A stretch of 64,000 bases of DNA from a virus (IMGVR_UViG_2861074659_000002); one strand, 5' to 3'; shown: positions 1 through 45,530, numbered from the stretch's first letter. Numbers and translations are program-made. Notes: a model not told the origin generated them from the sequence alone.

Positions 1-1201
<1,201 letters not shown>

Positions 1202-1224
<23 letters not shown>

Positions 1225-1420
1225 TTCTGATCCTCTTCAAAAGGCCACCTGTTACTGGTCGATTTAAGTCAACCTTTACCGCTGATTCGTGGAACAGATA
1301 CTCTCTTCCATCCTTAACCGGAGGTGGGAATATCCTGCATTCCCGAACCCATCGACGAACTGTTTCAAGGCTTCTTGGACGTCGCTGGCGTGCGTTCCAC
1401 TCCTGAAGTGTCAAGTACAT
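1202..1420 (-). CDS. xis: Excisionase Xis (72 aa)
   Basis: MYLTLQEWNARQRRPRSLETVRRWVRECRIFPP... matches lambda Xis; overlaps int start. Confidence 0.95.
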
Positions 1421-1715
1421 CGCAAAGTCTCCGCAATTACACGCAAGAAAAAACCGCCATCAGGCGGCTTGGTGTTCTTTCAGTTCTTCAATTCGAATAT
1501 TGGTTACGTCTGCATGTGCTATCTGCGCCCATATCATCCAGTGGTCGTAGCAGTCGTTGATGTTCTCCGCTTCGATAACTCTGTTGAATGGCTCTCCATT
1601 CCATTCTCCTGTGACTCGGAAGTGCATTTATCATCTCCATAAAACAAAACCCGCCGTAGCGAGTTCAGATAAAATAAATCCCCGCGAGTGCGAGGATTGT
1701 TATGTAATATTGGGT

Positions 1716-1997
1716 TTAATCATCTATATGTTTTGTACAGAGAGGGCAAGTATCGTTTCCACCGTACTCGTGATAATAATTTTGCACGGTATCAGTCATT
1801 TCTCGCACATTGCAGAATGGGGATTTGTCTTCATTAGACTTATAAACCTTCATGGAATATTTGTATGCCGACTCTATATCTATACCTTCATCTACATAAA
1901 CACCTTCGTGATGTCTGCATGGAGACAAGACACCGGATCTGCACAACATTGATAACGCCCAATCTTTTTGCTCAGACTCTAACTCATTGATACTCAT
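1716..1997 (-). CDS. ea8.5: Ea8.5 protein (93 aa)
   Basis: Position and length match lambda ea8.5 downstream of xis. Confidence 0.8.
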   Translation of the reverse strand: MSINELESEQKDWALSMLCRSGVLSPCRHHEGVYVDEGIDIESAYKYSMKVYKSNEDKSPFCNVREMTDTVQNYYHEYGGNDTCPLCTKHIDD

Positions 1998-2188
1998 TTA
2001 TAAACTCCTTGCAATGTATGTCGTTTCAGCTAAACGGTATCAGCAATGTTTATGTAAAGAAACAGTAAGATAATACTCAACCCGATGTTTGAGTACGGTC
2101 ATCATCTGACACTACAGACTCTGGCATCGCTGTGAAGACGACGCGAAATTCAGCATTTTCACAAGCGTTATCTTTTACAAAACCGATC

Positions 2189-2737
2189 TCACTCTCCTTT
2201 GATGCGAATGCCAGCGTCAGACATCATATGCAGATACTCACCTGCATCCTGAACCCATTGACCTCCAACCCCGTAATAGCGATGCGTAATGATGTCGATA
2301 GTTACTAACGGGTCTTGTTCGATTAACTGCCGCAGAAACTCTTCCAGGTCACCAGTGCAGTGCTTGATAACAGGAGTCTTCCCAGGATGGCGAACAACAA
2401 GAAACTGGTTTCCGTCTTCACGGACTTCGTTGCTTTCCAGTTTAGCAATACGCTTACTCCCATCCGAGATAACACCTTCGTAATACTCACGCTGCTCGTT
2501 GAGTTTTGATTTTGCTGTTTCAAGCTCAACACGCAGTTTCCCTACTGTTAGCGCAATATCCTCGTTCTCCTGGTCGCGGCGTTTGATGTATTGCTGGTTT
2601 CTTTCCCGTTCATCCAGCAGTTCCAGCACAATCGATGGTGTTACCAATTCATGGAAAAGGTCTGCGTCAAATCCCCAGTCGTCATGCATTGCCTGCTCTG
2701 CCGCTTCACGCAGTGCCTGAGAGTTAATTTCGCTCAC
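2189..2737 (-). CDS. ea22: Ea22 protein (182 aa)
   Basis: Position and length match lambda ea22. Confidence 0.8.
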   Translation of the reverse strand: MSEINSQALREAAEQAMHDDWGFDADLFHELVTPSIVLELLDERERNQQYIKRRDQENEDIALTVGKLRVELETAKSKLNEQREYYEGVISDGSKRIAKLESNEVREDGNQFLVVRHPGKTPVIKHCTGDLEEFLRQLIEQDPLVTIDIITHRYYGVGGQWVQDAGEYLHMMSDAGIRIKGE

Positions 2738-2955
2738 TTCGAACCTCTCTGTTTACTGATAAGTTCCAGATCCTCCTGGCAACTTGCACAAGTCCGACAA
2801 CCCTGAACGACCAGGCGTCTTCGTTCATCTATCGGATCGCCACACTCACAACAATGAGTGGCAGATATAGCCTGGTGGTTCAGGCGGCGCATTTTTATTG
2901 CTGTGTTGCGCTGTAATTCTTCTATTTCTGATGCTGAATCAATGATGTCTGCCAT
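2734..2955 (-). CDS. Small hypothetical protein with four-Cys zinc-ribbon motif (CCECGD...CRTCASC), TraR/DksA-like
   Basis: 73 aa ORF overlapping ea22 start by 4 nt (operon-like coupling); Cys spacing typical of C4 zinc finger. Confidence 0.5.
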   Translation of the reverse strand: MADIIDSASEIEELQRNTAIKMRRLNHQAISATHCCECGDPIDERRRLVVQGCRTCASCQEDLELISKQRGSK

Positions 2956-3180
2956 CTTTCATTAATCCCTGAACTGTTGGTTAATACGCTTGAGGGTGAA
3001 TGCGAATAATAAAAAAGGAGCCTGTAGCTCCCTGATGATTTTGCTTTTCATGTTCATCGTTCCTTAAAGACGCCGTTTAACATGCCGATTGCCAGGCTTA
3101 AATGAGTCGGTGTGAATCCCATCAGCGTTACCGTTTCGCGGTGCTTCTTCAGTACGCTACGGCAAATGTCATCGACGTTT

Positions 3181-3366
3181 TTATCCGGAAACTGCTGTCT
3201 GGCTTTTTTTGATTTCAGAATTAGCCTGACGGGCAATGCTGCGAAGGGCGTTTTCCTGCTGAGGTGTCATTGAACAAGTCCCATGTCGGCAAGCATAAGC
3301 ACACAGAATATGAAGCCCGCTGCCAGAAAAATGCATTCCGTGGTTGTCATACCTGGTCTCTCTCAT
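3181..3366 (-). CDS. Hypothetical protein orf61 (61 aa)
   Basis: Length and position match lambda orf61. Confidence 0.55.
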   Translation of the reverse strand: MRETRYDNHGMHFSGSGLHILCAYACRHGTCSMTPQQENALRSIARQANSEIKKSQTAVSG

Positions 3367-3538
3367 CTGCTTCTGCTTTCGCCACCATCATTTCCAGCTT
3401 TTGTGAAAGGGATGCGGCTAACGTATGAAATTCTTCGTCTGTTTCTACTGGTATTGGCACAAACCTGATTCCAATTTGAGCAAGGCTATGTGCCATCTCG
3501 ATACTCGTTCTTAACTCAACAGAAGATGCTTTGTGCAT
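3347..3538 (-). CDS. Hypothetical protein orf63 (63 aa)
   Basis: Length and position match lambda orf63. Confidence 0.55.
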   Translation of the reverse strand: MHKASSVELRTSIEMAHSLAQIGIRFVPIPVETDEEFHTLAASLSQKLEMMVAKAEADERDQV

Positions 3539-3693
3539 ACAGCCCCTCGTTTATTATTTATCTCCTCAGCCAGCCGCTGTGCTTTCAGTGGATTTCGGAT
3601 AACAGAAAGGCCGGGAAATACCCAGCCTCGCTTTGTAACGGAGTAGACGAAAGTGATTGCGCCTACCCGGATATTATCGTGAGGATGCGTCAT
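3511..3693 (-). CDS. Hypothetical protein orf60a (60 aa from second Met of ORF)
   Basis: [19 protein letters not shown]...; 4-nt overlap with exo as in lambda. Confidence 0.55.
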
Positions 3694-4370
3694 CGCCATT
3701 GCTCCCCAAATACAAAACCAATTTCAGCCAGTGCCTCGTCCATTTTTTCGATGAACTCCGGCACGATCTCGTCAAAACTCGCCATGTACTTTTCATCCCG
3801 CTCAATCACGACATAATGCAGGCCTTCACGCTTCATACGCGGGTCATAGTTGGCAAAGTACCAGGCATTTTTTCGCGTCACCCACATGCTGTACTGCACC
3901 TGGGCCATGTAAGCTGACTTTATGGCCTCGAAACCACCGAGCCGGAACTTCATGAAATCCCGGGAGGTAAACGGGCATTTCAGTTCAAGGCCGTTGCCGT
4001 CACTGCATAAACCATCGGGAGAGCAGGCGGTACGCATACTTTCGTCGCGATAGATGATCGGGGATTCAGTAACATTCACGCCGGAAGTGAATTCAAACAG
4101 GGTTCTGGCGTCGTTCTCGTACTGTTTTCCCCAGGCCAGTGCTTTAGCGTTAACTTCCGGAGCCACACCGGTGCAAACCTCAGCAAGCAGGGTGTGGAAG
4201 TAGGACATTTTCATGTCAGGCCACTTCTTTCCGGAGCGGGGTTTTGCTATCACGTTGTGAACTTCTGAAGCGGTGATGACGCCGAGCCGTAATTTGTGCC
4301 ACGCATCTTCCCCCTGTTCGACAGCTCTCACATCGATCCCGGTACGCTGCAGGATAATGTCCGGTGTCAT
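3690..4370 (-). CDS. exo: Lambda exonuclease (Red alpha, 226 aa)
   Basis: [20 protein letters not shown]... matches lambda Exo. Confidence 0.95.
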
Positions 4371-5152
4371 GCTGCCACCTTCTGCTCTGCGGCTTTCTGT
4401 TTCAGGAATCCAAGAGCTTTTACTGCTTCGGCCTGTGTCAGTTCTGACGATGCACGAATGTCGCGGCGAAATATCTGGGAACAGAGCGGCAATAAGTCGT
4501 CATCCCATGTTTTATCCAGGGCGATCAGCAGAGTGTTAATCTCCTGCATGGTTTCATCGTTAACCGGAGTGATGTCGCGTTCCGGCTGACGTTCTGCAGT
4601 GTATGCAGTATTTTCGACAATGCGCTCGGCTTCATCCTTGTCATAGATACCAGCAAATCCGAAGGCCAGACGGGCACACTGAATCATGGCTTTATGACGT
4701 AACATCCGTTTGGGATGCGACTGCCACGGCCCCGTGATTTCTCTGCCTTCGCGAGTTTTGAATGGTTCGCGGCGGCATTCATCCATCCATTCGGTAACGC
4801 AGATCGGATGATTACGGTCCTTGCGGTAAATCCGGCATGTACAGGATTCATTGTCCTGCTCAAAGTCCATGCCATCAAACTGCTGGTTTTCATTGATGAT
4901 GCGGGACCAGCCATCAACGCCCACCACCGGAACGATGCCATTCTGCTTATCAGGAAAGGCGTAAATTTCTTTCGTCCACGGATTAAGGCCGTACTGGTTG
5001 GCAACGATCAGTAATGCGATGAACTGCGCATCGCTGGCATCACCTTTAAATGCCGTCTGGCGAAGAGTGGTGATCAGTTCCTGTGGGTCGACAGAATCCA
5101 TGCCGACACGTTCAGCCAGCTTCCCAGCCAGCGTTGCGAGTGCAGTACTCAT
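4367..5152 (-). CDS. bet: Red beta single-strand annealing protein (261 aa)
   Basis: [48 protein letters not shown]... matches lambda Bet. Confidence 0.95.
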
Positions 5153-5157
5153 TCGTT

Positions 5158-5574
5158 TTATACCTCTGAATCAATATCAACCTGGTGGTGAGCAATGGTT
5201 TCAACCATGTACCGGATGTGTTCTGCCATGCGCTCCTGAAACTCAACATCGTCATCAAACGCACGGGTAATGGATTTTTTGCTGGCCCCGTGGCGTTGCA
5301 AATGATCGATGCATAGCGATTCAAACAGGTGCTGGGGCAGGCCTTTTTCCATGTCGTCTGCCAGTTCTGCCTCTTTCTCTTCACGGGCGAGCTGCTGGTA
5401 GTGACGCGCCCAGCTCTGAGCCTCAAGACGATCCTGAATGTAATAAGCGTTCATGGCTGAACTCCTGAAATAGCTGTGAAAATATCGCCCGCGAAATGCC
5501 GGGCTGATTAGGAAAACAGGAAAGGGGGTTAGTGAATGCTTTTGCTTGATCTCAGTTTCAGTATTAATATCCAT
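5158..5574 (-). CDS. gam: Gam RecBCD inhibitor (138 aa)
   Basis: [24 protein letters not shown]... matches lambda Gam. Confidence 0.95.
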
Positions 5575-5672
5575 TTTTTATAAGCGTCGACGGCTTCACG
5601 AAACATCTTTTCATCGCCAATAAAAGTGGCGATAGTGAATTTAGTCTGGATAGCCATAAGTGTTTGATCCAT
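5529..5672 (-). CDS. kil: Kil host-killing protein (47 aa)
   Basis: [47 protein letters not shown]. Confidence 0.75.
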
Positions 5673-5805
5673 TCTTTGGGACTCCTGGCTGATTAAGTAT
5701 GTCGATAAGGCGTTTCCATCCGTCACGTAATTTACGGGTGATTCGTTCAAGTAAAGATTCGGAAGGGCAGCCAGCAACAGGCCACCCTGCAATGGCATAT
5801 TGCAT
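5641..5805 (-). CDS. cIII: CIII (54 aa), FtsH inhibitor stabilising CII
   Basis: [54 protein letters not shown]. Confidence 0.85.
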   Translation of the reverse strand: MQYAIAGWPVAGCPSESLLERITRKLRDGWKRLIDILNQPGVPKNGSNTYGYPD

Positions 5806-5877
5806 GGTGTGCTCCTTATTTATACATAACGAAAAACGCCTCGAGTGAAGCGTTATTGGTATGCGGTAAAACCGCAC

Positions 5878-6246
5878 TCAGGCGGCCTTGATAGTCATAT
5901 CATCTGAATCAAATATTCCTGATGTATCGATATCGGTAATTCTTATTCCTTCGCTACCATCCATTGGAGGCCATCCTTCCTGACCATTTCCATCATTCCA
6001 GTCGAACTCACACACAACACCATATGCATTTAAGTCGCTTGAAATTGCTATAAGCAGAGCATGTTGCGCCAGCATGATTAATACAGCATTTAATACAGAG
6101 CCGTGTTTATTGAGTCGGTATTCAGAGTCTGACCAGAAATTATTAATCTGGTGAAGTTTTTCCTCTGTCATTACGTCATGGTCGATTTCAATTTCTATTG
6201 ATGCTTTCCAGTCGTAATCAATGATGTATTTTTTGATGTTTGACAT
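5878..6246 (-). CDS. ea10: Ea10 protein (122 aa)
   Basis: Length and position match lambda ea10. Confidence 0.75.
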   Translation of the reverse strand: MSNIKKYIIDYDWKASIEIEIDHDVMTEEKLHQINNFWSDSEYRLNKHGSVLNAVLIMLAQHALLIAISSDLNAYGVVCEFDWNDGNGQEGWPPMDGSEGIRITDIDTSGIFDSDDMTIKAA

Positions 6247-6428
6247 CTGTTCATATCCTCACAGATAAAAAATCGCCCTCACACTGGAGGGCAAAGAAGA
6301 TTTCCAATAATCAGAACAAGTCGGCTCCTGTTTAGTTACGAGCGACATTGCTCCGTGTATTCACTCGTTGGAATGAATACACAGTGCAGTGTTTATTCTG
6401 TTATTTATGCCAAAAATAAAGGCCACTA

Positions 6429-6629
6429 TCAGGCAGCTTTGTTGTTCTGTTTACCAAGTTCTCTGGCAATCATTGCCGTCGTTCGTATTGCCCATTTATC
6501 GACATATTTCCCATCTTCCATTACAGGAAACATTTCTTCAGGCTTAACCATGCATTCCGATTGCAGCTTGCATCCATTGCATCGCTTGAATTGTCCACAC
6601 CATTGATTTTTATCAATAGTCGTAGTCAT
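6429..6629 (-). CDS. ral: Ral restriction-alleviation protein (66 aa)
   Basis: MTTTIDKNQWCGQFKRCNGCKLQSECMVKPEEMFPVMEDGKYVDKWAIRTTAMIARELGKQNNKAA. Confidence 0.85.
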   Translation of the reverse strand: MTTTIDKNQWCGQFKRCNGCKLQSECMVKPEEMFPVMEDGKYVDKWAIRTTAMIARELGKQNNKAA

Positions 6630-6707
6630 ACGGATAGTCCTGGTATTGTTCCATCACATCCTGAGGATGCTCTTCGAACTCTTCAAATTCTTCTTCCATA
6701 TATCACC

Positions 6708-7037
6708 TCAAATAAGTGGTTTGCTGCCTAATTTAATTTTCTGGCGACCAACACAAGTCACACCCATTTCACTGCGTGGCTTGCTGTAGTAAATACGGTT
6801 CTGTTTACGCTCGACTTCTTCTGCCTTCTTGCAGCGAAGGCTTCCGAGTGATGCTGCTTTATCTGCTCTGACGCAACCAGAGAGCTTTAGCGCAATTTTT
6901 CGCGCCAGTGCTTCATTACTGCGTCGCTCGGCAATAAGTTCTGCTCTGCGAGCTTTGTAGCGGCTTTTTGCCGTACCTTTGGATTCTTTCCAGACAATGG
7001 TTACCATGATGGTCTCCTTTAAGTGGCTTTGGCGCAT
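6708..7037 (-). CDS. N: N antiterminator of phage-21 type (ORF 109 aa; true start may be the internal Met at MVTIVWKESKG)
   Basis: Arginine-rich motif GTAKSRYKARRAELIAERR typical of phi21 N; C-terminus resembles lambda N (...GRQKIK..PLI). Confidence 0.8.
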   Translation of the reverse strand: MRQSHLKETIMVTIVWKESKGTAKSRYKARRAELIAERRSNEALARKIALKLSGCVRADKAASLGSLRCKKAEEVERKQNRIYYSKPRSEMGVTCVGRQKIKLGSKPLI

Positions 7038-7300
7038 GACGCGTCGAGGTGCTTATCTTCTCGATCGCTGTCTTGTAGCTGCAATTCGCGCCATCCCCAA
7101 AACCACTCAAGTTCTGGTCTCAACGGTTAGGTTGAGAGTCCGTCGATGTTAAAGAGCCTGCCAATCTGTTCCGTTTGGCTTCCAGCGTCCTGCTGATGGC
7201 TTAAATTTAAGACTTCTTAATTTATTGGTCAAGTGCATTTTTGAAGAAAACTTAATTTTATGGGCGTGAATTTAGTTTGTCTTTGATTTTTAACGGGAAA

Positions 7301-7322
7301 TAAAAAAGGGGCGAAAGCCCCT
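7301..7322 (-). terminator. Rho-independent terminator hairpin downstream of cI (GGGGC-TTTC-GCCCC followed by T-run on minus strand)
   Basis: Perfect 5-bp stem with T6 tail read on minus strand immediately after cI stop. Confidence 0.5.
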
Positions 7323-7972
7323 TAAGGAAGGTTTGCTAGCTTGGCATCAACGACAACGCCAATGATTTTACAGTTCCCATTGATTTCAATCATTGGGTAT
7401 TGTGGATTGAGTGGTTTCAGGAATTTTCTACCGGCATCAATAACTAACTTTTTGAATGTCGCCTCGTTTTCTCCTTCAAGTTTGGCGACTACCAGCTTTC
7501 CATTACGTGGTTCGACTTCTGGGTCGACGAGAATAATCATCCCCTCAGGAATACTCAGTCCTGCCGGGGCAGTCATTGAATCGCCTTTAACGTCGAGCCA
7601 AAAAGAGTCTTCAGAACAATCTACCGTTGTGTCGTACCAGTTATCTATTGCACGCCTATGATATGGCTCTACAGCTTCCATCCAACATCCTGCGCTTACC
7701 CAACTAATTAGAGGATACGAACCTCTTGGATCATGCCTGCTGTGATAGGCAATGTTTGAAAGACTATCCTCTCCTTTCAACAGGTAATCAGGGGAGCACT
7801 GCAAAGCCTTGGCTAAGGCCAATAGGTTTTCGCCATTGGGCTCAGTTTCAGATCGCTCCCATTGGGAAATAGCAACATTAGACACGCCAACCATCTTGCC
7901 AAGGGCAGCCTGCCTAATCTTGAGTTCTTTTCTGCGAGCGCGAATACGCTCACCCATCAGTTGTGTATTCAT
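7322..7972 (-). CDS. cI: CI-type repressor (216 aa), P22 c2 / phage 21 family, HTH N-domain plus LexA-like S24 autocleavage domain
   Basis: MNTQLMGERIRARRKELKIRQAALGKMVGVSNVAISQWERSE...GDSM...NGNCKIIGVVVDAKLANLP; intact in copy 1. Confidence 0.9.
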   Translation of the reverse strand: MNTQLMGERIRARRKELKIRQAALGKMVGVSNVAISQWERSETEPNGENLLALAKALQCSPDYLLKGEDSLSNIAYHSRHDPRGSYPLISWVSAGCWMEAVEPYHRRAIDNWYDTTVDCSEDSFWLDVKGDSMTAPAGLSIPEGMIILVDPEVEPRNGKLVVAKLEGENEATFKKLVIDAGRKFLKPLNPQYPMIEINGNCKIIGVVVDAKLANLP

Positions 7973-8052
7973 AGTTAAGACATCTTAAATAAACTTGACT
8001 TAAGATTCCTTTGGTGGATAATTTAAGTGTTCTTTAATTTCGGAGCGAGTCT
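7973..8052. promoter_or_regulatory. Divergent operator/promoter region between cI and cro (OR with pR and pRM); candidate pR -35 TTGACT (7995..8000) and -10 GATAAT (8017..8022)
   Basis: 80-bp intergenic region between divergent repressor genes with sigma70-like hexamers at 16-bp spacing. Confidence 0.55.
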
Positions 8053-8237
8053 ATGTACAAAAAAGATGTTATTGACCACTTCGGAACCCAGCGTGCTGTT
8101 GCTAAGCACTAGGCATTAGCGATGCAGCAGTCTCTCAGTGGAAAGAAGTTATCCCAGAGAAAGACGCCTATCGATTGGAAATCGTTACAGCTGGCGCCCT
8201 GAAGTATCAAGAAAGTGCTTACCGCCAAGCGGCATAA
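8053..8237 (+). pseudogene. cro: Cro (P22 / phage 21 type) interrupted by a 1-bp deletion after codon 18 (AAA to AA), premature stop
   Basis: MYKKDVIDHFGTQRAVAKH* in copy 1 versus intact 61-aa ORF at 51392..51577 in copy 2. Confidence 0.8.
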
Positions 8238-8352
8238 GCAAATTGCTCTTTAACAGTTCTGGCCTTTCACCTCTAACCGGGTGAGCAAACATCAGCGGCA
8301 AATCCATTGGGTGTGCCGCTATAACTCAATATCAATATAGGTAAATTAACAA

Positions 8353-8650
8353 ATGGCACAAGCAAGCTACAGCAAGCCAACACAGCGAGAAATTGATCGC
8401 GCTGAAACTGATTTACTCATCAACCTGTCAACGCTTACCCAGCGCGGTCTGGCAAAGATGATTGGCTGTCATGAATCGAGATAAGCAGAACGGACTGGAG
8501 ATTATTGCTTCGGTCTTGTGTGCTTTCGGAATGGCATCAGACATCAGTCCGATTAGCAGGGCTTTTAAGTATGCGCTTGATGGACTCACAAAGAAAAAAC
8601 GCCCGGTGTGCAAGACCGAGCGTTCTGAACAAATCCAGATGGAGTTCTGA
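8353..8650 (+). pseudogene. cII: CII-like activator, apparently split over three reading frames (N-terminal 43 codons, then C-terminal ...KKKRPVCKTERSEQIQMEF in another frame)
   Basis: N-terminus MAQASYSKPTQREIDRAETDLLINLSTLTQRGLAKMIGCHES resembles cII HTH region; C-terminus matches lambda CII tail; same in both copies. Confidence 0.55.
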
Positions 8651-8681
8651 GGTCATTACTGGATCTATCAACAGAGTCATT

Positions 8682-9576
8682 ATGACAAATACAGCAAAAT
8701 ACTCAACTTCGGCAGAGGTAACTTGCCGGACAGGAGCGTAATGTGGCAGATCTCGATGATGGTTACGCCAGACTATCAAATATGCTGCTTGAGGCTTATT
8801 CGGGCGCAGATCTGACCAAGCGACAGTTTAAAGTGCTGCTTGCCATTCTGCGTAAACCTATGGTGGAATAAACCAATGGACAGAATCACCGATTCTCAAC
8901 TTAGCGAGATTACAAAGTTACCTGTCAAACGGTGCAATGAAGCCAAGTTAGAACTCGTCAGAATGAATATTATCAAGCAGCAAGGCGGCATGTTTGGACC
9001 AAATAAAAACATCTCAGAATGGTGTATCCCTCAAACGAGGGGAAAATCCCCTAAACGAGGGATAAAACATCCCTCAAATTGGGGGATTGCTATCCCTCAA
9101 AACAGGGGGACACAAAAGACACTATTACAAAAGAAAAAAGAAAAGATTATTCGTCAGAGAATTCTGGCGAATCCTCTGACCAGCCAGAAAACGACCTTTC
9201 TGTGGTGAAACCGGATGCTGCAATTCAGAGCGGCAGCAAGTGGGGGACAGCAGAAGACCTGACCGCCGCAGAGTGGATGTTTGACATGGTGAAGACTATC
9301 GCACCATCAGCCAGAAAACCGAATTTTGCTGGGTGGGCTAACGATATCCGCCTGATGCGTGAACGTGACGGACGTAACCACCGCGACATGTGTGTGCTGT
9401 TCCGCTGGGCATGCCAGGACAACTTCTGGTCCGGTAACGTGCTGAGCCCGGCCAAACTCCGCGATAAGTGGACCCAACTCGAAATCAACCGTAACAAGCA
9501 ACAGGCAGGCGTGACAGCCAGCAAACCAAAACTCGACCTGACAAACACAGACTGGATTTACGGGGTGGATCTATGA
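8682..9576 (+). pseudogene. O: Replication initiator O, fragmented by several 1-nt indels in N-terminal region and iterons; C-terminal 165 aa domain intact
   Basis: MTNTAK then frame breaks; pieces ...NKPMDRITDSQLSEITKLPVKRCNEAKLELVRMNIIKQQGGMFGPNKNISEWCIPQ and CYPSKQGDTKDT...WIYGVDL match lambda O in different frames. Confidence 0.8.
9026..9150. promoter_or_regulatory. ori: Origin of replication (four O-binding iterons ATCCCTCAAA-CGAGGG type plus AT-rich region) embedded in O
   Basis: Four tandem ~18-20 bp inverted-repeat iterons followed by A-rich tract; iteron spacer lengths differ from what I recall for lambda. Confidence 0.7.
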
Positions 9577-10274
9577 AAAACATCGCCGCACAGATGGTTA
9601 ACTTTGACCGTGAGCAGATGCGTCGGATCGCCAACAACATGCCGGAACAGTACGACGAAAAGCCGCAGGTACAGCAGGTAGCGCAGATCATCAACGGTGT
9701 GTTCAGCCAGTTACTGGCAACTTTCCCGGCGAGCCTGGCTAACCGTGACCAGAACGAAGTGAACGAAATCCGTCGCCAGTGGGTTCTGGCTTTTCGGGAA
9801 AACGGGATCACCACGATGGAACAGGTTAACGCAGGAATGCGCGTAGCCCGTCGGCAGAATCGACCATTTCTGCCATCACCCGGGCAGTTTGTTGCATGGT
9901 GCCGGGAAGAAGCATCCGTTACCGCCGGACTGCCAAACGTCAGCGAGCTGGTTGATATGGTTTACGAGTATTGCCGGAAGCGAGGCCTGTATCCGGATGC
10001 GGAGTCTTATCCGTGGAAATCAAACGCGCACTACTGGCTGGTTACCAACCTGTATCAGAACATGCGGGCCAATGCGCTTACTGATGCGGAATTACGCCGT
10101 AAGGCCGCAGATGAGCTTGTCCATATGACTGCGAGAATTAACCGTGGTGAGGCGATCCCTGAACCAGTAAAACAACTTCCTGTCATGGGCGGTAGACCTC
10201 TAAATCGTGCACAGGCTCTGGCGAAGATCGCAGAAATCAAAGCTAAGTTCGGACTGAAAGGAGCAAGTGTATGA
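9573..10274 (+). CDS. P: Replication protein P (DnaB helicase loader, 233 aa)
   Basis: Full-length match to lambda P. Confidence 0.95.
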
Positions 10275-11074
10275 CGGGCAAAGAGGCAATTATTCATTAC
10301 CTGGGGACGCATAATAGCTTCTGTGCGCCGGACGTTGCCGCGCTAACAGGCGCAACAGTAACCAGCATAAATCAGGCCGCGGCTAAAATGGCACGGGCAG
10401 GTCTTCTGGTTATCGAAGGTAAGGTCTGGCGAACGGTGTATTACCGGTTTGCTACCAGGGAAGAACGGGAAGGAAAGATGAGCACGAACCTGATGAACAA
10501 ACTGGATACGATTGGATTCGACAACAAAAAAGACCTGCTTATCTCGGTGGGCGATTTGGTTGATCGTGGTGCAGAGAACGTTGAATGCCTGGAATTAATC
10601 ACATTCCCCTGGTTCAGAGCTGTACGTGGAAACCATGAGCAAATGATGATTGATGGCTTATCAGAGCGTGGAAACGTTAATCACTGGCTGCTTAATGGCG
10701 GTGGCTGGTTCTTTAATCTCGATTACGACAAAGAAATTCTGGCTAAAGCTCTTGCCCATAAAGCAGATGAACTTCCGTTAATCATCGAACTGGTGAGCAA
10801 AGATAAAAAATATGTTATCTGCCACGCCGATTATCCCTTTGACGAATACGAGTTTGGAAAGCCAGTTGATCATCAGCAGGTAATCTGGAACCGCGAACGA
10901 ATCAGCAACTCACAAAACGGGATCGTGAAAGAAATCAAAGGCGCGGACACGTTCATCTTTGGTCATACGCCAGCAGTGAAACCACTCAAGTTTGCCAACC
11001 AAATGTATATCGATACCGGCGCAGTGTTCTGCGGAAACCTAACATTGATTCAGGTACAGGGAGAAGGCGCATGA
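10271..11074 (+). CDS. Ren-NinI fusion created by nin5-type deletion; C-terminal part is Ser/Thr protein phosphatase (lambda PPase) with GDxVDRG and GNHE motifs
   Basis: N-terminus [27 protein letters not shown] (Ren) joined in frame to ...[36 protein letters not shown]...RGNHE (NinI/orf221). Confidence 0.85.
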
Positions 11075-11694
11075 GACTCGAAAGCGTAGCTAAATTTCAT
11101 TCGCCAAAAAGCCCGATGATGAGCGACTCACCACGGGCCACGGCTTCTGACTCTCTTTCCGGTACTGATGTGATGGCTGCTATGGGGATGGCGCAATCAC
11201 AAGCCGGATTCGGTATGGCTGCATTCTGCGGTAAGCACGAACTCAGCCAGAACGACAAACAAAAGGCTATCAACTATCTGATGCAATTTGCACACAAGGT
11301 ATCGGGGAAATACCGTGGTGTGGCATATCTTGAAGGAAATACTAAGGCAAAGGTACTGCAAGTGCTCGCAACATTCGCTTATGCGGATTATTGCCGTAGT
11401 GCCGCGACGCCGGGGGCAAGATGCAGAGATTGCCATGGTACAGGCCGTGCGGTTGATATTGCCAAAACAGAGCTGTGGGGGAGAGTTGTCGAGAAAGAGT
11501 GCGGAAGATGCAAAGGCGTCGGCTATTCAAGGATGCCAGCAAGCGCAGCATATCGCGCTGTGACGATGCTAATCCCAAACCTTACCCAACCCACCTGGTC
11601 ACGCACTGTTAAGCCGCTGTATGACGCTCTGGTGGTGCAATGCCACAAAGAAGAGTCAATCGCAGACAACATTTTGAATGCGGTCACACGTTAG
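11071..11694 (+). CDS. Q: Late gene antiterminator Q (207 aa)
   Basis: Length/position and sequence match lambda Q. Confidence 0.9.
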
Positions 11695-11736
11695 CAGCAT
11701 GATTGCCACGGATGGCAACATATTAACGGCATGATA

Positions 11737-11766
11737 TTGACTTATTGAATAAAATTGGGTAAATTT
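11737..11766 (+). promoter_or_regulatory. Late promoter pR' (-35 TTGACT 11737..11742, -10 TAAATT 11760..11765, 17-bp spacer), with qut region
   Basis: Consensus-like sigma70 hexamers downstream of Q and about 190 nt upstream of tR'. Confidence 0.65.
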
Positions 11767-11805
11767 GACTCAACGATGGGTTAATTCGCTCGTTGTGGTA
11801 GTGAG

Positions 11806-12000
11806 ATGAAAAGAGGCGGCGCTTACTACCGATTCCGCCTAGTTGGTCACTTCGACGTATCGTCTGGAACTCCAACCATCGCAGGCAGAGAGGTCTGCAA
11901 AATGCAATCCCGAAACAGTTCGCAGGTAATAGTTAGAGCCTGCATAACGGTTTCGGGATTTTTTATATCTGCACAACAGGTAAGAGCATTGAGTCGATAA
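11806..12000 (+). CDS. Hypothetical orf-64 overlapping 6S leader RNA region
   Basis: 64-aa ORF at lambda orf-64 position; coding status doubtful. Confidence 0.3.
   Translation: MKRGGAYYRFRLVGHFDVSSGTPTIAGREVCKMQSRNSSQVIVRACITVSGFFISAQQVRALSR
11905..11966 (+). terminator. tR' terminator (3' end of 6S RNA): stem AATCCCGAAAC...GTTTCGGGATT followed by T-run
   Basis: Long GC-containing hairpin followed by TTTTTTA. Confidence 0.65.
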
Positions 12001-12370
12001 TCGTGAAGAGTCGGCGAGCCTGGTTAGCCAGTGCTCTTTCCGTTGTGCTGAATTAAGCGAATACCGGAAGCAGAACCGGATCACCAAATGCGTACAGGCG
12101 TCATCGCCGCCCAGCAACAGCACAACCCAAACTGAGCCGTAGCCACTGTCTGTCCTGAATTCATTAGTAATAGTTACGCTGCGGCCTTTTACACATGACC
12201 TTCGTGAAAGCGGGTGGCAGGAGGTCGCGCTAACAACCTCCTGCCGTTTTGCCCGTGCATATCGGTCACGAACAAATCTGATTACTAAACACAGTAGCCT
12301 GGATTTGTTCTATCAGTAATCGACCTTATTCCTAATTAAATAGAGCAAATCCCCTTATTGGGGGTAAGAC

Positions 12371-12694
12371 ATGAAGATGCCAGAAAAACATGACCTGTTG
12401 GCCGCCATTCTCGCGGCAAAGGAACAAGGCATCGGGGCAATCCTTGCGTTTGCAATGGCGTACCTTCGCGGCAGATATAATGGCGGTGCGTTTACAAAAA
12501 CAGTAATCGACGCAACGATGTGCGCCATTATCGCCTGGTTCATTCGTGACCTTCTCGACTTCGCCGGACTAAGTAGCAATCTCGCTTATATAACGAGCGT
12601 GTTTATCGGCTACATCGGTACTGACTCGATTGGTTCGCTTATCAAACGCTTCGCTGCTAAAAAAGCCGGAGTAGAAGATGGTAGAAATCAATAA
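12371..12694 (+). CDS. S: Holin/antiholin S (S107 from Met1; S105 holin from Met3 at 12377), wild type
   Basis: [34 protein letters not shown]...; dual-start MKM motif; Trp56 codon intact. Confidence 0.95.
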
Positions 12695-13154
12695 TCAACG
12701 TAAGGCGTTCCTCGATATGCTGGCGTGGTCGGAGGGAACTGATAACGGACGTCAGAAAACCAGAAATCATGGTTATGACGTCATTGTAGGCGGAGAGCTA
12801 TTCACTGATTACTCCGATCACCCTCGCAAACTTGTCACGCTAAACCCAAAACTCAAATCAACAGGCGCCGGACGCTACCAGCTTCTTTCCCGTTGGTGGG
12901 ATGCCTACCGCAAGCAGCTTGGCCTGAAAGACTTCTCTCCGAAAAGTCAGGACGCTGTGGCATTGCAGCAGATTAAGGAGCGTGGCGCTTTACCTATGAT
13001 TGATCGTGGTGATATCCGTCAGGCAATCGACCGTTGCAGCAATATCTGGGCTTCACTGCCGGGCGCTGGTTATGGTCAGTTCGAGCATAAGGCTGACAGC
13101 CTGATTGCAAAATTCAAAGAAGCGGGCGGAACGGTCAGAGAGATTGATGTATGA
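12678..13154 (+). CDS. R: Endolysin R (lytic transglycosylase, 158 aa)
   Basis: [28 protein letters not shown]... matches lambda R. Confidence 0.95.
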
Positions 13155-13612
13155 GCAGAGTCACCGCGATTATCTCCGCTCTGGTTATCTGCATCATCGT
13201 CTGCCTGTCATGGGCTGTTAATCATTACCGTGATAACGCCATTACCTACAAAGCCCAGCGCGACAAAAATGCCAGAGAACTGAAGCTGGCGAACGCGGCA
13301 ATTACTGACATGCAGATGCGTCAGCGTGATGTTGCTGCGCTCGATGCAAAATACACGAAGGAGTTAGCTGATGCTAAAGCTGAAAATGATGCTCTGCGTG
13401 ATGATGTTGCCGCTGGTCGTCGTCGGTTGCACATCAAAGCAGTCTGTCAGTCAGTGCGTGAAGCCACCACCGCCTCCGGCGTGGATAATGCAGCCTCCCC
13501 CCGACTGGCAGACACCGCTGAACGGGATTATTTCACCCTCAGAGAGAGGCTGATCACTATGCAAAAACAACTGGAAGGAACCCAGAAGTATATTAATGAG
13601 CAGTGCAGATAG
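13151..13612 (+). CDS. Rz: Spanin inner-membrane subunit Rz (153 aa)
   Basis: Matches lambda Rz. Confidence 0.9.
13371..13553 (+). CDS. Rz1: Spanin outer-membrane lipoprotein Rz1 (60 aa), embedded in +1 frame of Rz
   Basis: [23 protein letters not shown]... lipobox LVVVGC, proline-rich. Confidence 0.85.
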
Positions 13613-13643
13613 AGCTGACCATATCGATGGGCAACTCATGCAA

Positions 13644-13937
13644 TTATTTTGAGCAATACACACGCGCTTCCAGCGGAGTATAAATGCCTAAAGTAATAAA
13701 ACCGAGCAATCCATTTACGAATGTTTGCTGGGTTTCTGTTTTAACAACATTTTCTGCGCCGCCACAAATTTTAGCTGCATCGACAGTTTTCTTCTGCCCA
13801 ATTCCAGAAACGAAGAAATGATGGGTGATGGTTTCCTTTGGTGCTACTGCTGCCGGTTTGTTTTGAACAGTAAACGTCTGTTGAGCACATCCTGTAATAA
13901 GCAGGGCCAGCGCAGTAGCGAGTAGCATTTTTTTCAT
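13644..13937 (-). CDS. bor: Bor lipoprotein (serum resistance, 97 aa)
   Basis: MKKMLLATALALLITGCAQQ... lipobox; matches lambda Bor. Confidence 0.9.
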   Translation of the reverse strand: MKKMLLATALALLITGCAQQTFTVQNKPAAVAPKETITHHFFVSGIGQKKTVDAAKICGGAENVVKTETQQTFVNGLLGFITLGIYTPLEARVYCSK

Positions 13938-14226
13938 GGTGTTATTCCCGATGCTTTTTGAAGTTCGCAGAATCGTATGTGTAGAAAATTAAACAAACCC
14001 TAAACAATGAGTTGAAATTTCATATTGTTAATATTTATTAATGTATGTCAGGTGCGATGAATCGTCATTGTATTCCCGGATTAACTATGTCCACAGCCCT
14101 GACGGGGAACTTCTCTGCGGGAGTGTCCGGGAATAATTAAAACGATGCACACAGGGTTTAGCGCGTACACGTATTGCATTATGCCAACGCCCCGGTGCTG
14201 ACACGGAAGAAACCGGACGTTATGAT

Positions 14227-14760
14227 TTAGCGTGGAAAGATTTGTGTAGTGTTCTGAATGCTCTCAGTAAATAGTAATGAATTATCAAAGGTATAGTAAT
14301 ATCTTTTATGTTCATGGATATTTGTAACCCATCGGAAAACTCCTGCTTTAGCAAGATTTTCCCTGTATTGCTGAAATGTGATTTCTCTTGATTTCAACCT
14401 ATCATAGGACGTTTCTATAAGATGCGTGTTTCTTGAGAATTTAACATTTACAACCTTTTTAAGTCCTTTTATTAACACGGTGTTATCGTTTTCTAACACG
14501 ATGTGAATATTATCTGTGGCTAGATAGTAAATATAATGTGAGACGTTGTGACGTTTTAGTTCAGAATAAAACAATTCACAGTCTAAATCTTTTCGCACTT
14601 GATCGAATATTTCTTTAAAAATGGCAACCTGAGCCATTGGTAAAACCTTCCATGTGATACGAGGGCGCGTAGTTTGCATTATCGTTTTTATCGTTTCAAT
14701 CTGGTCTGACCTCCTTGTGTTTTGTTGATGATTTATGTCAAATATTAGGAATGTTTTCAC
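14227..14760 (-). CDS. Hypothetical protein (lambda p78-like, 177 aa)
   Basis: ORF at lambda p78 position between bor and cos. Confidence 0.6.
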
Positions 14761-14922
14761 TTAATAGTATTGGTTGCGTAACAAAGTGCGGTCCTGCTGG
14801 CATTCTGGAGGGAAATACAACCGACAGATGTATGTAAGGCCAACGTGCTCAAATCTTCATACAGAAAGATTTGAAGTAATATTTTAACCGCTAGATGAAG
14901 AGCAAGCGCATGGAGCGACAAA

Positions 14923-15129
14923 ATGAATAAAGAACAATCTGCTGATGATCCCTCCGTGGATCTGATTCGTGTAAAAAATATGCTTAATAGCACCATTTCT
15001 ATGAGTTACCCTGATGTTGTAATTGCATGTATAGAACATAAGGTGTCTCTGGAAGCATTCAGAGCAATTGAGGCAGCGTTGGTGAAGCACGATAATAATA
15101 TGAAGGATTATTCCCTGGTGGTTGACTGA
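14923..15129 (+). CDS. Hypothetical protein (lambda p79-like, 68 aa)
   Basis: ORF at lambda p79 position. Confidence 0.4.
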
Positions 15130-15293
15130 TCACCATAACTGCTAATCATTCAAACTATTTAGTCTGTGACAGAGCCAACACGCAGTCTGTCACTGTCAGG
15201 AAAGTGGTAAAACTGCAACTCAATTACTGCAATGCCCTCGTAATTAAGTGAATTTACAATATCGTCCTGTTCGGAGGGAAGAACGCGGGATGT

Positions 15294-15488
15294 TCATTCT
15301 TCATCACTTTTAATTGATGTATATGCTCTCTTTTCTGACGTTAGTCTCCGACGGCAGGCTTCAATGACCCAGGCTGAGAAATTCCCGGACCCTTTTTGCT
15401 CAAGAGCGATGTTAATTTGTTCAATCATTTGGTTAGGAAAGCGGATGTTGCGGGTTGTTGTTCTGCGGGTTCTGTTCTTCGTTGACAT
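15294..15488 (-). CDS. Putative small ribbon-helix-helix DNA-binding protein (64 aa)
   Basis: RNIRFPNQMIEQINIALEQKG...FSAWVIEACRRRL pattern resembles Arc/CopG RHH fold; about 200 bp from cos. Confidence 0.35.
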   Translation of the reverse strand: MSTKNRTRRTTTRNIRFPNQMIEQINIALEQKGSGNFSAWVIEACRRRLTSEKRAYTSIKSDEE

Positions 15489-15675
15489 GAGGTTGCCCCG
15501 TATTCAGTGTCGCTGATTTGTATTGTCTGAAGTTGTTTTTACGTTAAGTTGATGCAGATCAATTAATACGATACCTGCGTCATAATTGATTATTTGACGT
15601 GGTTTGATGGCCTCCACGCACGTTGTGATATGTAGATGATAATCATTATCACTTTACGGGTCCTTTCCGGTGATC

Positions 15676-15699
15676 CGACAGGTTACGGGGCGGCGACCT
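15676..15699. other. cos: cos site (cosN); right end ...CAGGTTACG joined to left-end 12-nt cohesive sequence GGGCGGCGACCT
   Basis: Exact lambda cohesive-end sequence at 15688..15699 followed by Nu1 190 nt downstream. Confidence 0.9.
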
Positions 15700-15876
15700 C
15701 GCGGGTTTTCGCTATTTATGAAAATTTTCCGGTTTAAGGCGTTTCCGTTCTTCTTCGTCATAACTTAATGTTTTTATTTAAAATACCCTCTGAAAAGAAA
15801 GGAAACGACAGGTGCTGAAAGCGAGCTTTTTGGCCTCTGTCGTTTCCTTTCTCTGTTTTTGTCCGTGGAATGAACA

Positions 15877-16396
15877 ATGGAAGTCAACAAAAAGCAGCTG
15901 GCTGACATTTTCGGTGCGAGTATCCGTACCATTCAGAACTGGCAGGAACAGGGAATGCCCGTTCTGCGAGGCGGTGGCAAGGGTAATGAGGTGCTTTATG
16001 ACTCTGCCGCCGTCATAAAATGGTATGCCGAAAGGGATGCTGAAATTGAGAACGAAAAGCTGCGCCGGGAGGTTGAAGAACTGCGGCAGGCCAGCGAGGC
16101 AGATCTCCAGCCAGGAACTATTGAGTACGAACGCCATCGACTTACGCGTGCGCAGGCCGACGCACAGGAACTGAAGAATGCCAGAGACTCCGCTGAAGTG
16201 GTGGAAACCGCATTCTGTACTTTCGTGCTGTCGCGGATCGCAGGTGAAATTGCCAGTATTCTCGACGGGCTCCCCCTGTCGGTGCAGCGGCGTTTTCCGG
16301 AACTGGAAAACCGACATGTTGATTTCCTGAAACGGGATATCATCAAAGCCATGAACAAAGCAGCCGCGCTGGATGAACTGATACCGGGGTTGCTGA

Positions 16397-16422
<26 letters not shown>
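15877..16422 (+). CDS. nu1: Terminase small subunit Nu1 (181 aa)
   Basis: MEVNKKQLADIFGASIRTIQNWQEQGMPV... matches lambda Nu1. Confidence 0.95.
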
Positions 16423-20103
<3,681 letters not shown>

Positions 20104-20123
<20 letters not shown>

Positions 20124-21422
20124 TCTCCCGCATATTGCCAGCATGGCCTTTAATGAGCCGCTGATGCTTGAACCCGCCTATGCGCGGGTTTTCTTTTGTG
20201 CGCTTGCAGGCCAGCTTGGGATCAGCAGCCTGACGGATGCGGTGTCCGGCGACAGCCTGACTGCCCAGGAGGCACTCGCGACGCTGGCATTATCCGGTGA
20301 TGATGACGGACCACGACAGGCCCGCAGTTATCAGGTCATGAACGGCATCGCCGTGCTGCCGGTGTCCGGCACGCTGGTCAGCCGGACGCGGGCGCTGCAG
20401 CCGTACTCGGGGATGACCGGTTACAACGGCATTATCGCCCGTCTGCAACAGGCTGCCAGCGATCCGATGGTGGACGGCATTCTGCTCGATATGGACACGC
20501 CCGGCGGGATGGTGGCGGGGGCATTTGACTGCGCTGACATCATCGCCCGTGTGCGTGACATAAAACCGGTATGGGCGCTTGCCAACGACATGAACTGCAG
20601 TGCAGGTCAGTTGCTTGCCAGTGCCGCCTCCCGGCGTCTGGTCACGCAGACCGCCCGGACAGGCTCCATCGGCGTCATGATGGCTCACAGTAATTACGGT
20701 GCTGCGCTGGAGAAACAGGGTGTGGAAATCACGCTGATTTACAGCGGCAGCCATAAGGTGGATGGCAACCCCTACAGCCATCTTCCGGATGACGTCCGGG
20801 AGACACTGCAGTCCCGGATGGACGCAACCCGCCAGATGTTTGCGCAGAAGGTGTCGGCATATACCGGCCTGTCCGTGCAGGTTGTGCTGGATACCGAGGC
20901 TGCAGTGTACAGCGGTCAGGAGGCCATTGATGCCGGACTGGCTGATGAACTTGTTAACAGCACCGATGCGATCACCGTCATGCGTGATGCACTGGATGCA
21001 CGTAAATCCCGTCTCTCAGGAGGGCGAATGACCAAAGAGACTCAATCAACAACTGTTTCAGCCACTGCTTCGCAGGCTGACGTTACTGACGTGGTGCCAG
21101 CGACGGAGGGCGAGAACGCCAGCGCGGCGCAGCCGGACGTGAACGCGCAGATCACCGCAGCGGTTGCGGCAGAAAACAGCCGCATTATGGGGATCTCAAC
21201 TGTGAGGAGGCTCACGGACGCGAAGAACAGGCACGCGTGCTGGCAGAAACCCCCGGTATGACCGTGAAAACGGCCCGCCGCATTCTGGCCGCAGCACCAC
21301 AGAGTGCACAGGCGCGCAGTGACACTGCGCTGGATCGTCTGATGCAGGGGGCACCGGCACCGCTGGCTGCAGGTAACCCGGCATCTGATGCCGTTAACGA
21401 TTTGCTGAACACACCAGTGTAA
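20104..21422 (+). pseudogene. C: Prohead protease C with nested scaffold Nu3; frameshifted by 1-bp deletion at 21191..21196
   Basis: GTG start at 20104; after ...AENSRIMGI the frame ends at 21261 while the C/Nu3 C-terminus (LAETPGMTVKTARRILAAAP...DLLNTPV) continues in another frame to 21422. Confidence 0.8.
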
Positions 21423-21431
21423 GGGATGTTT

Positions 21432-21764
21432 ATGACGAGCAAAGAAACCTTTACCCATTACCAGCCGCAGGGCAACAGTGACCCGGCTCATACCGCAACC
21501 GCGCCCGGCGGATTGAGTGCGAAAGCGCCTGCAATGACCCCGCTGATGCTGGACACCTCCAGCCGTAAGCTGGTTGCGTGGGATGGCACCACCGACGGTG
21601 CTGCCGTTGGCATTCTTGCGGTTGCTGCTGACCAGACCAGCACCACGCTGACGTTCTACAAGTCCGGCACGTTCCGTTATGAGGATGTGCTCTGGCCGGA
21701 GGCTGCCAGCGACGAGACGAAAAAACGGACCGCGTTTGCCGGAACGGCAATCAGCATCGTTTAA
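21432..21764 (+). CDS. D: Head decoration protein D (110 aa)
   Basis: [52 protein letters not shown]... Confidence 0.95.
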
Positions 21765-21819
21765 CTTTACCCTTCATCACTAAAGGCCGCCTGTGCGGCT
21801 TTTTTTACGGGATTTTTTT

Positions 21820-22845
21820 ATGTCGATGTACACAACCGCCCAACTGCTGGCGGCAAATGAGCAGAAATTTAAGTTTGATCCGCTGTTTCTGCGTCTCTTT
21901 TTCCGTGAGAGCTATCCCTTCACCACGGAGAAAGTCTATCTCTCACAAATTCCGGGACTGGTAAACATGGCGCTGTACGTTTCGCCGATTGTTTCCGGTG
22001 AGGTTATCCGTTCCCGTGGCGGCTCCACCTCTGAATTTACGCCGGGATATGTCAAGCCGAAGCATGAAGTGAATCCGCAGATGACCCTGCGTCGCCTGCC
22101 GGATGAAGATCCGCAGAATCTGGCGGACCCGGCTTACCGCCGCCGTCGCATCATCATGCAGAACATGCGTGACGAAGAGCTGGCCATTGCTCAGGTCGAA
22201 GAGATGCAGGCAGTTTCTGCCGTGCTTAAGGGCAAATACACCATGACCGGTGAAGCCTTCGATCCGGTTGAGGTGGATATGGGCCGCAGTGAGGAGAATA
22301 ACATCACGCAGTCCGGCGGCACGGAGTGGAGCAAGCGTGACAAGTCCACGTATGACCCGACCGACGATATCGAAGCCTACGCGCTGAACGCCAGCGGTGT
22401 GGTGAATATCATCGTGTTCGATCCGAAAGGCTGGGCGCTGTTCCGTTCCTTCAAAGCCGTCAAGGAGAAGCTGGATACCCGTCGTGGCTCTAATTCCGAG
22501 CTGGAGACAGCGGTGAAAGACCTGGGCAAAGCGGTGTCCTATAAGGGGATGTATGGCGATGTGGCCATCGTCGTGTATTCCGGACAGTACGTGGAAAACG
22601 GCGTCAAAAAGAACTTCCTGCCGGACAACACGATGGTGCTGGGGAACACTCAGGCACGCGGTCTGCGCACCTATGGCTGCATTCAGGATGCGGACGCACA
22701 GCGCGAAGGCATTAACGCCTCTGCCCGTTACCCGAAAAACTGGGTGACCACCGGCGATCCGGCGCGTGAGTTCACCATGATTCAGTCAGCACCGCTGATG
22801 CTGCTGGCTGACCCTGATGAGTTCGTGTCCGTACAACTGGCGTAA
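21820..22845 (+). CDS. E: Major capsid protein E (341 aa)
   Basis: MSMYTTAQLLAANEQKFKFDPLFLRLFFRESYPFTTEKVYLSQIPGLVNMALYVSPIVSGEVIRSRGGSTSEF... Confidence 0.95.
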   Translation: MSMYTTAQLLAANEQKFKFDPLFLRLFFRESYPFTTEKVYLSQIPGLVNMALYVSPIVSGEVIRSRGGSTSEFTPGYVKPKHEVNPQMTLRRLPDEDPQNLADPAYRRRRIIMQNMRDEELAIAQVEEMQAVSAVLKGKYTMTGEAFDPVEVDMGRSEENNITQSGGTEWSKRDKSTYDPTDDIEAYALNASGVVNIIVFDPKGWALFRSFKAVKEKLDTRRGSNSELETAVKDLGKAVSYKGMYGDVAIVVYSGQYVENGVKKNFLPDNTMVLGNTQARGLRTYGCIQDADAQREGINASARYPKNWVTTGDPAREFTMIQSAPLMLLADPDEFVSVQLA

Positions 22846-22886
22846 TCATGGCCCTTCGGGGCCATTGTTTCTCTGTGGAGGAGTCC

Positions 22887-23285: not shown

Positions 23286-23296
23286 CGGGAGGCGCT

Positions 23297-23650: not shown

Positions 23651-23661
23651 AAGGGGGATGT

Positions 23662-24632: not shown

Positions 24633-24639
24633 GGACGCT

Positions 24640-45339: not shown

Positions 45340-45530
45340 TTATAAACTCCTTGCAATGTATGTCGTTTCAGCTAAACGGTATCAGCAATGTTTATGTAAA
45401 GAAACAGTAAGATAATACTCAACCCGATGTTTGAGTACGGTCATCATCTGACACTACAGACTCTGGCATCGCTGTGAAGACGACGCGAAATTCAGCATTT
45501 TCACAAGCGTTATCTTTTACAAAACCGATC

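Follow-up and report, generated by a model that had tools for sequence, protein, structure and literature searches.

The insertion vectors lambda D69 and lambda DE3 (EU078592) combine the immunity region of phage 21 (imm21) with the nin5 deletion of lambda, and lacZ fusion phages of the lambda RS45 type combine imm21 with a 3'-truncated bla gene (bla') beside a cloning linker. The genotype of lambda RS45 is written imm21 ind+ bla'-lacZsc, and work with such fusion phages routinely includes a screen that tells single from multiple lysogens (PMC2681174). In tandem lysogens and polylysogens of lambda, the prophages are arranged in the order attL-prophage-attP-prophage-attR. We analyzed a 64,000-nucleotide stretch of viral DNA (IMGVR_UViG_2861074659_000002; hereafter, the window), in which imm21, with its repressor gene cI and its cro gene, occurs twice. 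A preliminary description of the window had read the two occurrences as bearing reciprocal lesions of the immunity switch, with cI intact and cro frameshifted in copy 1 and the reverse in copy 2. We found that the window is an engineered lambda lysogen in which two different lambda-imm21 hybrid prophages lie head to tail. The frameshifts in cI and cro are very probably consensus errors in a locally unpolished stretch of the sequence and not mutations of these phages, and complementary lesions of the switch are most likely not a real feature of the pair.

Two different lambda-imm21 prophages in tandem

Self-BLAST of the window revealed a direct repeat, in which positions 313..20661 (copy 1, from the truncated int to lambda gene C) were 99.69% identical to positions 43655..64000 (copy 2). 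The repeat was then compared base by base, and 64 differences were listed: 58 substitutions that all fall in 3580..6367, one further substitution at 7948 (G in copy 1 and A in copy 2), and five 1-bp indels. There were zero differences between the copies in 313..3579 and 8244..20661. With respect to lambda, window positions 313..6724 correspond to 27971..34381, 8585..10492 to 38591..40501, 10483..15687 to 43298..48502 (cos), and 15688..50066 to 1..34381, the last alignment being unbroken across the b region, attP, and int. The nin5 deletion is present in both copies; at window 10492/10483, lambda 40501 is joined to 43298, and lambda 40502..43297 is absent. As judged from this mapping, the repeating unit is a lambda b+ imm21 nin5 phage of 43,342 bp.

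The attP core GCTTTTTTATACTAA was located by sequence search at 43408..43422 on the plus strand, between the two copies, and this is its sole occurrence in the window. The uninterrupted lambda alignment (15688..50066) continues across it, and an attP site (POP') consequently lies between two colinear units, as in a dilysogen. The int gene of copy 2 (43496..44566, minus strand) is an intact open reading frame (ORF) of 356 amino acids. In regards to copy 1, int (235..1224, minus strand) is cut off at a BamHI junction and fused to antisense bla'; its 329-amino-acid ORF matches Int as far as ...SFEGDP, continues as NSLNQV..., and has lost the C-terminal ~50 residues. Because int is cut off at this junction, the copy 1 phage is Int-defective. 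The order of elements is an Int-defective insertion vector with bla' at the int BamHI site (copy 1), attP, and an int+ lambda-21 hybrid (copy 2). This agrees with the pair of a vector prophage and a co-integrated partner phage in the preliminary description, since only copy 2 has a complete int and only copy 2 carries the 58 phage-21-type substitutions.

The 58 substitutions form a patch with 0 indels (3580..6367 in copy 1 and 46922..49709 in copy 2), which is of the lambda/DE3 type in copy 1 and of the phage-21 type in copy 2. Alignment of copy 2 with phage 21 (OL657228) gave 100.0% identity over 2,851 bp in this patch, which spans exo-bet-gam-kil-cIII-ea10-ral. The corresponding region of lambda imm21, lambda h434 imm21, and DE3 is of the lambda type (98.0%), and no sequenced equivalent of the copy 2 hybrid, with exo to ral from phage 21, was present in the phage collection. 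Relative to phage 21, the left crossover with lambda lies within 3524..3579 in copy 2 and within 6368..6724 in copy 1. The right crossover lies within 9026..9155 in both copies, in the ori iteron region, where the last phage-21-type single-nucleotide difference is at 9025 and the first lambda-type one is at 9156.

A duplication or concatemer generated by the assembly was ruled out as the source of the tandem repeat by the 58 authentic phage-21 alleles of copy 2, by its intact int and attP, and by the bla' junction of copy 1. A DE3 prophage of the BL21(DE3) type was also ruled out: the T7 gene 1 junction is missing, the b region is wild type, and the junction of copy 1 occurs in no RefSeq Escherichia coli genome. 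We count as direct observations that the prophages are in tandem, that they are not identical, and that each difference from three independent reference lineages (DE3, lambda imm21, and phage 21) has the position, type, and clustering described below. The strain appears to hold two imm21 prophages. One of them is int+ att+ and adjoins an intact attP, which bears on reporter copy number, stability, and possible phage release.

One-base indels in the immunity and replication regions

The imm21-specific DNA without lambda homology spans 6725..8584 and holds N21, nutL, OL, cI, OR, cro, nutR, and most of cII; the lambda alignment breaks at its ends, and DE3 and phage 21 match throughout. The immunity region was 99.7% identical to lambda DE3, phage DN1, phage 21, lambda imm21, and lambda h434 imm21, with lambda sequence in the flanks. 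The reference length was 1504 nt in all of these, compared with 1500 nt in the window. The top E. coli matches to this region were all (DE3) expression strains, and none was 100% identical.

The states of the four switch genes were as the preliminary description had given them. The cI gene of copy 1 (7322..7972, minus strand), which encodes the P22 C2-like phage 21 repressor, is an intact ORF of 216 amino acids with 0 differences from the C2 gene of DE3. The cro gene of copy 1 (8053..8237, plus strand) lacks one A of an AAA run at 8104 (window allele GCTAAGCAC and reference allele GCTAAAGCAC), as judged by comparison with DE3; translation from 8053 gives a 19-amino-acid product, MYKKDVIDHFGTQRAVAKH, followed by a stop. 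In copy 2, cro (51392..51577, plus strand) is an intact ORF of 61 amino acids. The cI gene of copy 2 (50664..51311, minus strand) is broken, according to its ORFs and its alignment, by three 1-bp deletions at 50908, 51132, and 51167, and it also carries a substitution at 51287. In the coordinates of copy 1, the deletions remove a G of GGGG at 7566, a G of GGGG at 7791, and a T of TTTT at 7827, and the substitution is 7948 G>A, which gives R9C. At 50908, the window allele is CCGGGCAG and the reference allele is CCGGGGCAG. A fifth copy-specific indel, which the preliminary description had not listed, is a missing T at 51583 (8243 in copy 1); it lies 6 nt past the stop codon of copy 2 cro, beside boxA-R, the position of which was taken from the phage 21 annotation.

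These five indels belong to an indel-dense zone, 7566..9053, in which comparison with DE3, phage 21, and lambda imm21 gave 15 one-base homopolymer indels, 14 of them deletions. Copy 1 carries 11 (the one at 8104 and ten shared ones) and copy 2 carries 14 (7566, 7791, 7827, 8243, and the same ten). The ten events common to both copies lie in 8479..9053. Two of them, at 8479 and 8502, are 1-bp deletions that break cII (8353..8650, plus strand) in both copies, as seen from split ORFs and alignments, and the one at 8674 is intergenic. The other seven (8696, 8723, 8854, 8862, 9033, 9039, and 9053) break the replication gene O (8682..9576, plus strand; coordinates transferred from DE3 13070..13969) in both copies. 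The last three are within the ori iterons, which O holds, and the G gained at 9039 is the only insertion of the zone. The end of the zone (9053) falls inside the interval of the right lambda-21 crossover (9025..9156).

All 15 events are 1 bp in size and lie within runs of 2–5 identical bases; the copy-specific ones are in runs of 2–4, in keeping with the earlier remark that the indels sit in short homopolymers. The list of indels was identical when phage 21 was used as the reference instead of DE3. Copy 1 showed 0 substitutions and 11 indels relative to phage 21 over 6368..9155, and copy 2 showed 1 substitution (R9C) and 14 indels over 3580..9150. The reference side consists of six records from independent sequencing (two of DE3 and one each of DN1, phage 21, lambda imm21, and lambda h434 imm21), and these agree with one another against the window.

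The distribution of the indels was far from uniform. Over 36.6 kb (313..36915), copy 1 differed from DE3 by 14 one-base gaps and 2 substitutions, and 11 of the 14 indels were inside the zone, which makes up 4.1% of the sequence (P = 1.7e-13). The five between-copy indels all fall within 678 of 20,349 bp (7566..8243; P ~4e-8 under uniform placement), and no others were found across the 20.3-kb repeat. The composition of the zone is ordinary, with ~4.3% of the homopolymer runs in 4.1% of the length and a content of guanine plus cytosine (GC) of 0.45, like that of its neighbors. The remaining three indels of copy 1 relative to DE3 are isolated single-A deletions outside homopolymers, at 21195 (GGGGAT[A]CTC), 30112 (GGGGG[A]CGA), and 34223 (AAAGC[A]GTG). 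They cause frameshifts in C/Nu3, K, and J, respectively, and show background deletion errors beyond the dense zone.

Exact matches to the cro allele lacking one A and to the bla'-int junction were absent from the viral, genome, and metagenome contigs, phages, plasmids, and RefSeq E. coli sequences searched. The same imm21 cI-cro-cII-O stretch is present, with an identity of only 96.7%, at 902244..904381 of CP061244.1, a record of 1.41 Mb that is labeled an E. coli "plasmid" and stems from human cell culture; apparently, a laboratory lysogen with imm21 (DE3-type) was assembled noisily there as well.

Residues 1-68 of the cI repressor are near-identical to P22 C2 (PDB 1adr, 2r1j, and 3jxb), and its C-terminal domain matches lambda cI. 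The records of phage 21 (OL657228, 7756..8328) and lambda imm21 start the repressor at Met27, giving 190 amino acids. This start looks mis-called, to judge from the alignment, because the 216-amino-acid form aligns end to end with P22 C2 (PDB 1adr) and a start at Met27 drops helix 1 and part of the helix-turn-helix.

Origin of the cI and cro lesions

Sequencing error had been named as an alternative in the preliminary description, and it turned out to be the better explanation of a single cluster of 15 homopolymer indels that is biased toward deletions and accompanied by 0–1 substitutions. We favor consensus error because the clustered 1-bp homopolymer deletions come without accompanying substitutions, and because real lesions would break cII twice and the essential gene O seven times in both phages, and the head and tail genes C, K, and J in copy 1. 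Real lesions are also implausible in copy 2 cI, since this gene has three frameshifts where one suffices. No gap or change of type separates the copy-specific indels from the shared ones; they therefore form one cluster, and its division into a real part and an artefactual part would require a coincidence. Seven identical sequence contexts elsewhere in the phage were called correctly, as were similar runs straight after 9053, and this, together with the abrupt stop at 9053, indicates a local quality problem.

Under the consensus-error reading, homopolymer lengths would have been under-called across a stretch of ~1.5 kb (7566..9053) that escaped accurate polishing in both copies. In the real DNA of both copies, cro, cII, and O would be intact, cI of copy 1 would be wild type, and cI of copy 2 would differ at R9C alone. 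One possible route is that a long-read-derived consensus bridged this stretch in a hybrid assembly. Another is that short-read polishing failed in the near-identical tandem repeats, with reads going to the copy without the draft error, which would account for the copy-specific errors. The absence of the construct from RefSeq complete E. coli genomes is compatible with an assembly excluded for frameshifts and is not proof of it.

Three causes of the clustering were considered and set aside. An excess of homopolymers or a low GC content was ruled out by the ordinary composition of the zone (4.3% of runs in 4.1% of length; GC 0.45). The lack of a lambda reference for polishing, or familiarity of the basecaller with lambda, was ruled out since the zone extends across the imm21/lambda boundary (8585) and the imm21-specific DNA is error-free in its left 840 bp. 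A deterministic, context-specific basecalling error was ruled out, with weak power, by the 7 identical contexts and the runs after 9053 that were called correctly. Some observations count against consensus error. The sharp bounds of 7566..9053 follow neither the imm21/lambda boundary, GC content, homopolymer density, nor sequence context; the other ~19 kb of the repeat has 0 indels relative to DE3; and the upkeep of a prophage needs no cro, cII, or O, so that real lesions would be tolerable once the phages had integrated.

The preliminary description had also proposed that the frameshifts, if real, define a cI+ cro- vector and a clear helper phage held in check in trans. This part was not supported, in that the same cluster breaks cII and O in both copies. 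The "reciprocity" of cI and cro is statistically unremarkable (roughly 1 in 12 by estimate), given that the stretch is ~90% coding and that copy 1 has one copy-specific indel there and copy 2 has four. Taken literally, the model has a vector prophage that is cI+ cro- and a cro+ partner, clear through its cI frameshift, that is repressed in trans. The ORFs are in the states that it describes, copy 2 is truly a different int+ att+ phage, as expected of a helper, and the operators and promoters that separate cI from cro in imm21 do not differ between the copies or from the references, so that repression in trans would work. However, it needs five independent real frameshifts right beside ten more homopolymer indels, and three frameshifts in one gene are unlike a clear mutant. 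Seven lesions of O in each copy would have left both phages unable to replicate. A lambda phage that is cI+ cro- forms no plaques, and such a vector could therefore not be propagated lytically for a lysate; the cro allele lacking one A was, moreover, in no public sequence searched. We consider the literal model very unlikely. That the cluster is real DNA damage, a local shower of -1 frameshifts, for example, from error-prone break-repair synthesis, spread between the copies by gene conversion, is extremely improbable. In its favor, the cluster has sharp limits, one of them in the ori iterons, ten of its events are the same in both copies, as gene conversion in a tandem repeat could yield, and deletions in small mononucleotide repeats are a known signature of error-prone polymerases. 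Nevertheless, 15 unselected frameshifts in 1.5 kb without base substitutions would lie orders of magnitude above described mutational processes, the three similar isolated deletions elsewhere suggest general deletion noise, and the account is less parsimonious than a technical artefact.

The substitution R9C differs in kind from the indels and may be a real allele of copy 2 cI. When either copy is compared with phage 21 and DE3, it is the only substitution in the immunity region. On the coding strand, it is a C>T transition, and it sits in helix 1 of the helix-turn-helix (DNA-binding) domain. The indels could accordingly be errors and copy 2 still be a true repressor-defective (clear) helper through R9C, with working repressor supplied by copy 1 alone; we regard this as possible, although doubtful. 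Substitution noise is otherwise undetectable, given the 100.0% identity of copy 2 to phage 21 over 2,851 bp and the 2 substitutions of copy 1 relative to DE3 in 36.6 kb, and the N-terminal domain in which R9C lies is near-identical to that of P22 C2. Among 32 diverse homologues, residue 9 was Arg in 24, Leu in 8, and Cys in none (0/32). The Leu residues imply that Arg is not strictly required, and no functional data on R9 were found. A lone substitution in a low-quality zone could itself be an error, and an int+ cI+ phage co-lysogenizes equally well, so that the structure needs no clear mutation.

In a broader form, part of the asymmetry would be real: R9C and/or a cI frameshift would have made copy 2 a clear helper with a defective repressor, trapped in tandem and silenced solely by the repressor of the vector. 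We consider this unlikely. If it were true, the record would keep a "fossil" of a helper-assisted lysogenization that should leave no helper behind; even if the lesions were real, they would represent only a known laboratory phenomenon, the co-integration of a helper with a vector. It would be a mistake to call these lesions pseudogenes or to build a story of repression in trans on them.

Vector features and comparison with known systems

The right end of the copy 1 insert is the 5' part of TEM-1 bla (bla', codons 1-102; 1..307, plus strand). The ORF 1..339 starts with MSIQHFRV..., and its residues 1-102 match residues 1-102 of TEM beta-lactamase (E = 4e-64). The first base of the window is that of the ATG of TEM-1 bla; whatever the bla promoter drives or adjoins, possibly a lacZ fusion, is off the left end of the window. 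A linker with EcoRI (GAATTC) and BamHI (GGATCC) sites, which was read directly (308..319), connects bla' to the BamHI site of lambda int, and homology to lambda and DE3 begins at 313. The GGATCC junction at 314..319 corresponds to DE3 4697 and lambda 27972, exactly the position at which DE3 carries the T7 RNA polymerase cassette. The end of bla' at codon 102 is at the position of the ScaI site of pBR322. The T expected from a blunt cut of AGT|ACT is absent ahead of the GGAATTCGGATCC linker, which could be another 1-bp deletion or nibbling during the cloning of the linker. Lambda InCh was considered as the source of bla', since bla homology is used there, and was set aside because that system finally deletes most of lambda.

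A segment of copy 1 corresponding to the EcoRI-B region (36916..41787) is wild-type b-region sequence, 100% identical to lambda and missing from DE3. Both substitutions of copy 1 relative to DE3, at 34188 and 34417, are in gene J and give A1000V (J nt C2999T) and V1077L (J nt G3229T), inside the receptor-specificity region of J (residues 960-1132). Within this region, host-range evolution has repeatedly involved residues 990-1000 and 1077 (PMC6646904). In the vector, the two changes probably constitute a classical extended-host-range (h) marker. The holin gene S (12371..12694) is intact in both copies, without the Sam7 amber mutation, and S of the deposited DE3 sequence likewise lacks it.

The indels themselves have a known counterpart. 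Homopolymer errors in long-read or flow-based consensus sequences, which persist in near-identical repeats after polishing, are likewise one-base, deletion-biased, and free of substitutions, they break ORFs that are intact in the references, and some are copy-specific, as in the window. They usually spread along unpolished sequence, whereas the indels of the dense zone occupy only 1.5 kb and begin and end abruptly.

The window shares its immunity region and nin5 with lambda D69 and lambda DE3, and its right arm (9054..20661) is without differences from DE3. Copy 1 has its insert at the same int BamHI position as DE3 (DE3 4697 and window 313) and is Int-defective in consequence, by the same reading of the junction. 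The insert of copy 1 ends in bla' and the EcoRI/BamHI linker and that of DE3 in T7 gene 1. D69 and DE3 have a deletion of ~4.9 kb in the b region (the EcoRI-B segment), whereas the b region of copy 1 is wild type and thus lacks this D69 feature, and J of copy 1 differs from that of DE3 by A1000V and V1077L. Copy 1 resembles the lacZ fusion phages of the lambda RS45 type in having imm21 and bla' beside a cloning linker. The lacZ of such a phage would lie to the left of window position 1. RS45 lysogenizes without a helper, and, in contrast to RS45, bla' adjoins a disrupted int in copy 1.

As in tandem lysogens of lambda, the attP core and its arms lie between colinear units, here of 43,342 bp. 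The units of the window are two different phages, a vector and an int+ lambda-21 hybrid, instead of one phage present twice, and attL and attR are outside the window. The architecture of the switch is ordinary for the cI-Cro switch of P22 C2 and phage 21, and Cro is P22-Cro-like according to the reference annotations. Every component of the window is already known: lambda-21 hybrid immunity, nin5, insertion at the int BamHI site in the style of D69, bla' homology arms, and tandem lysogens with an internal attP.

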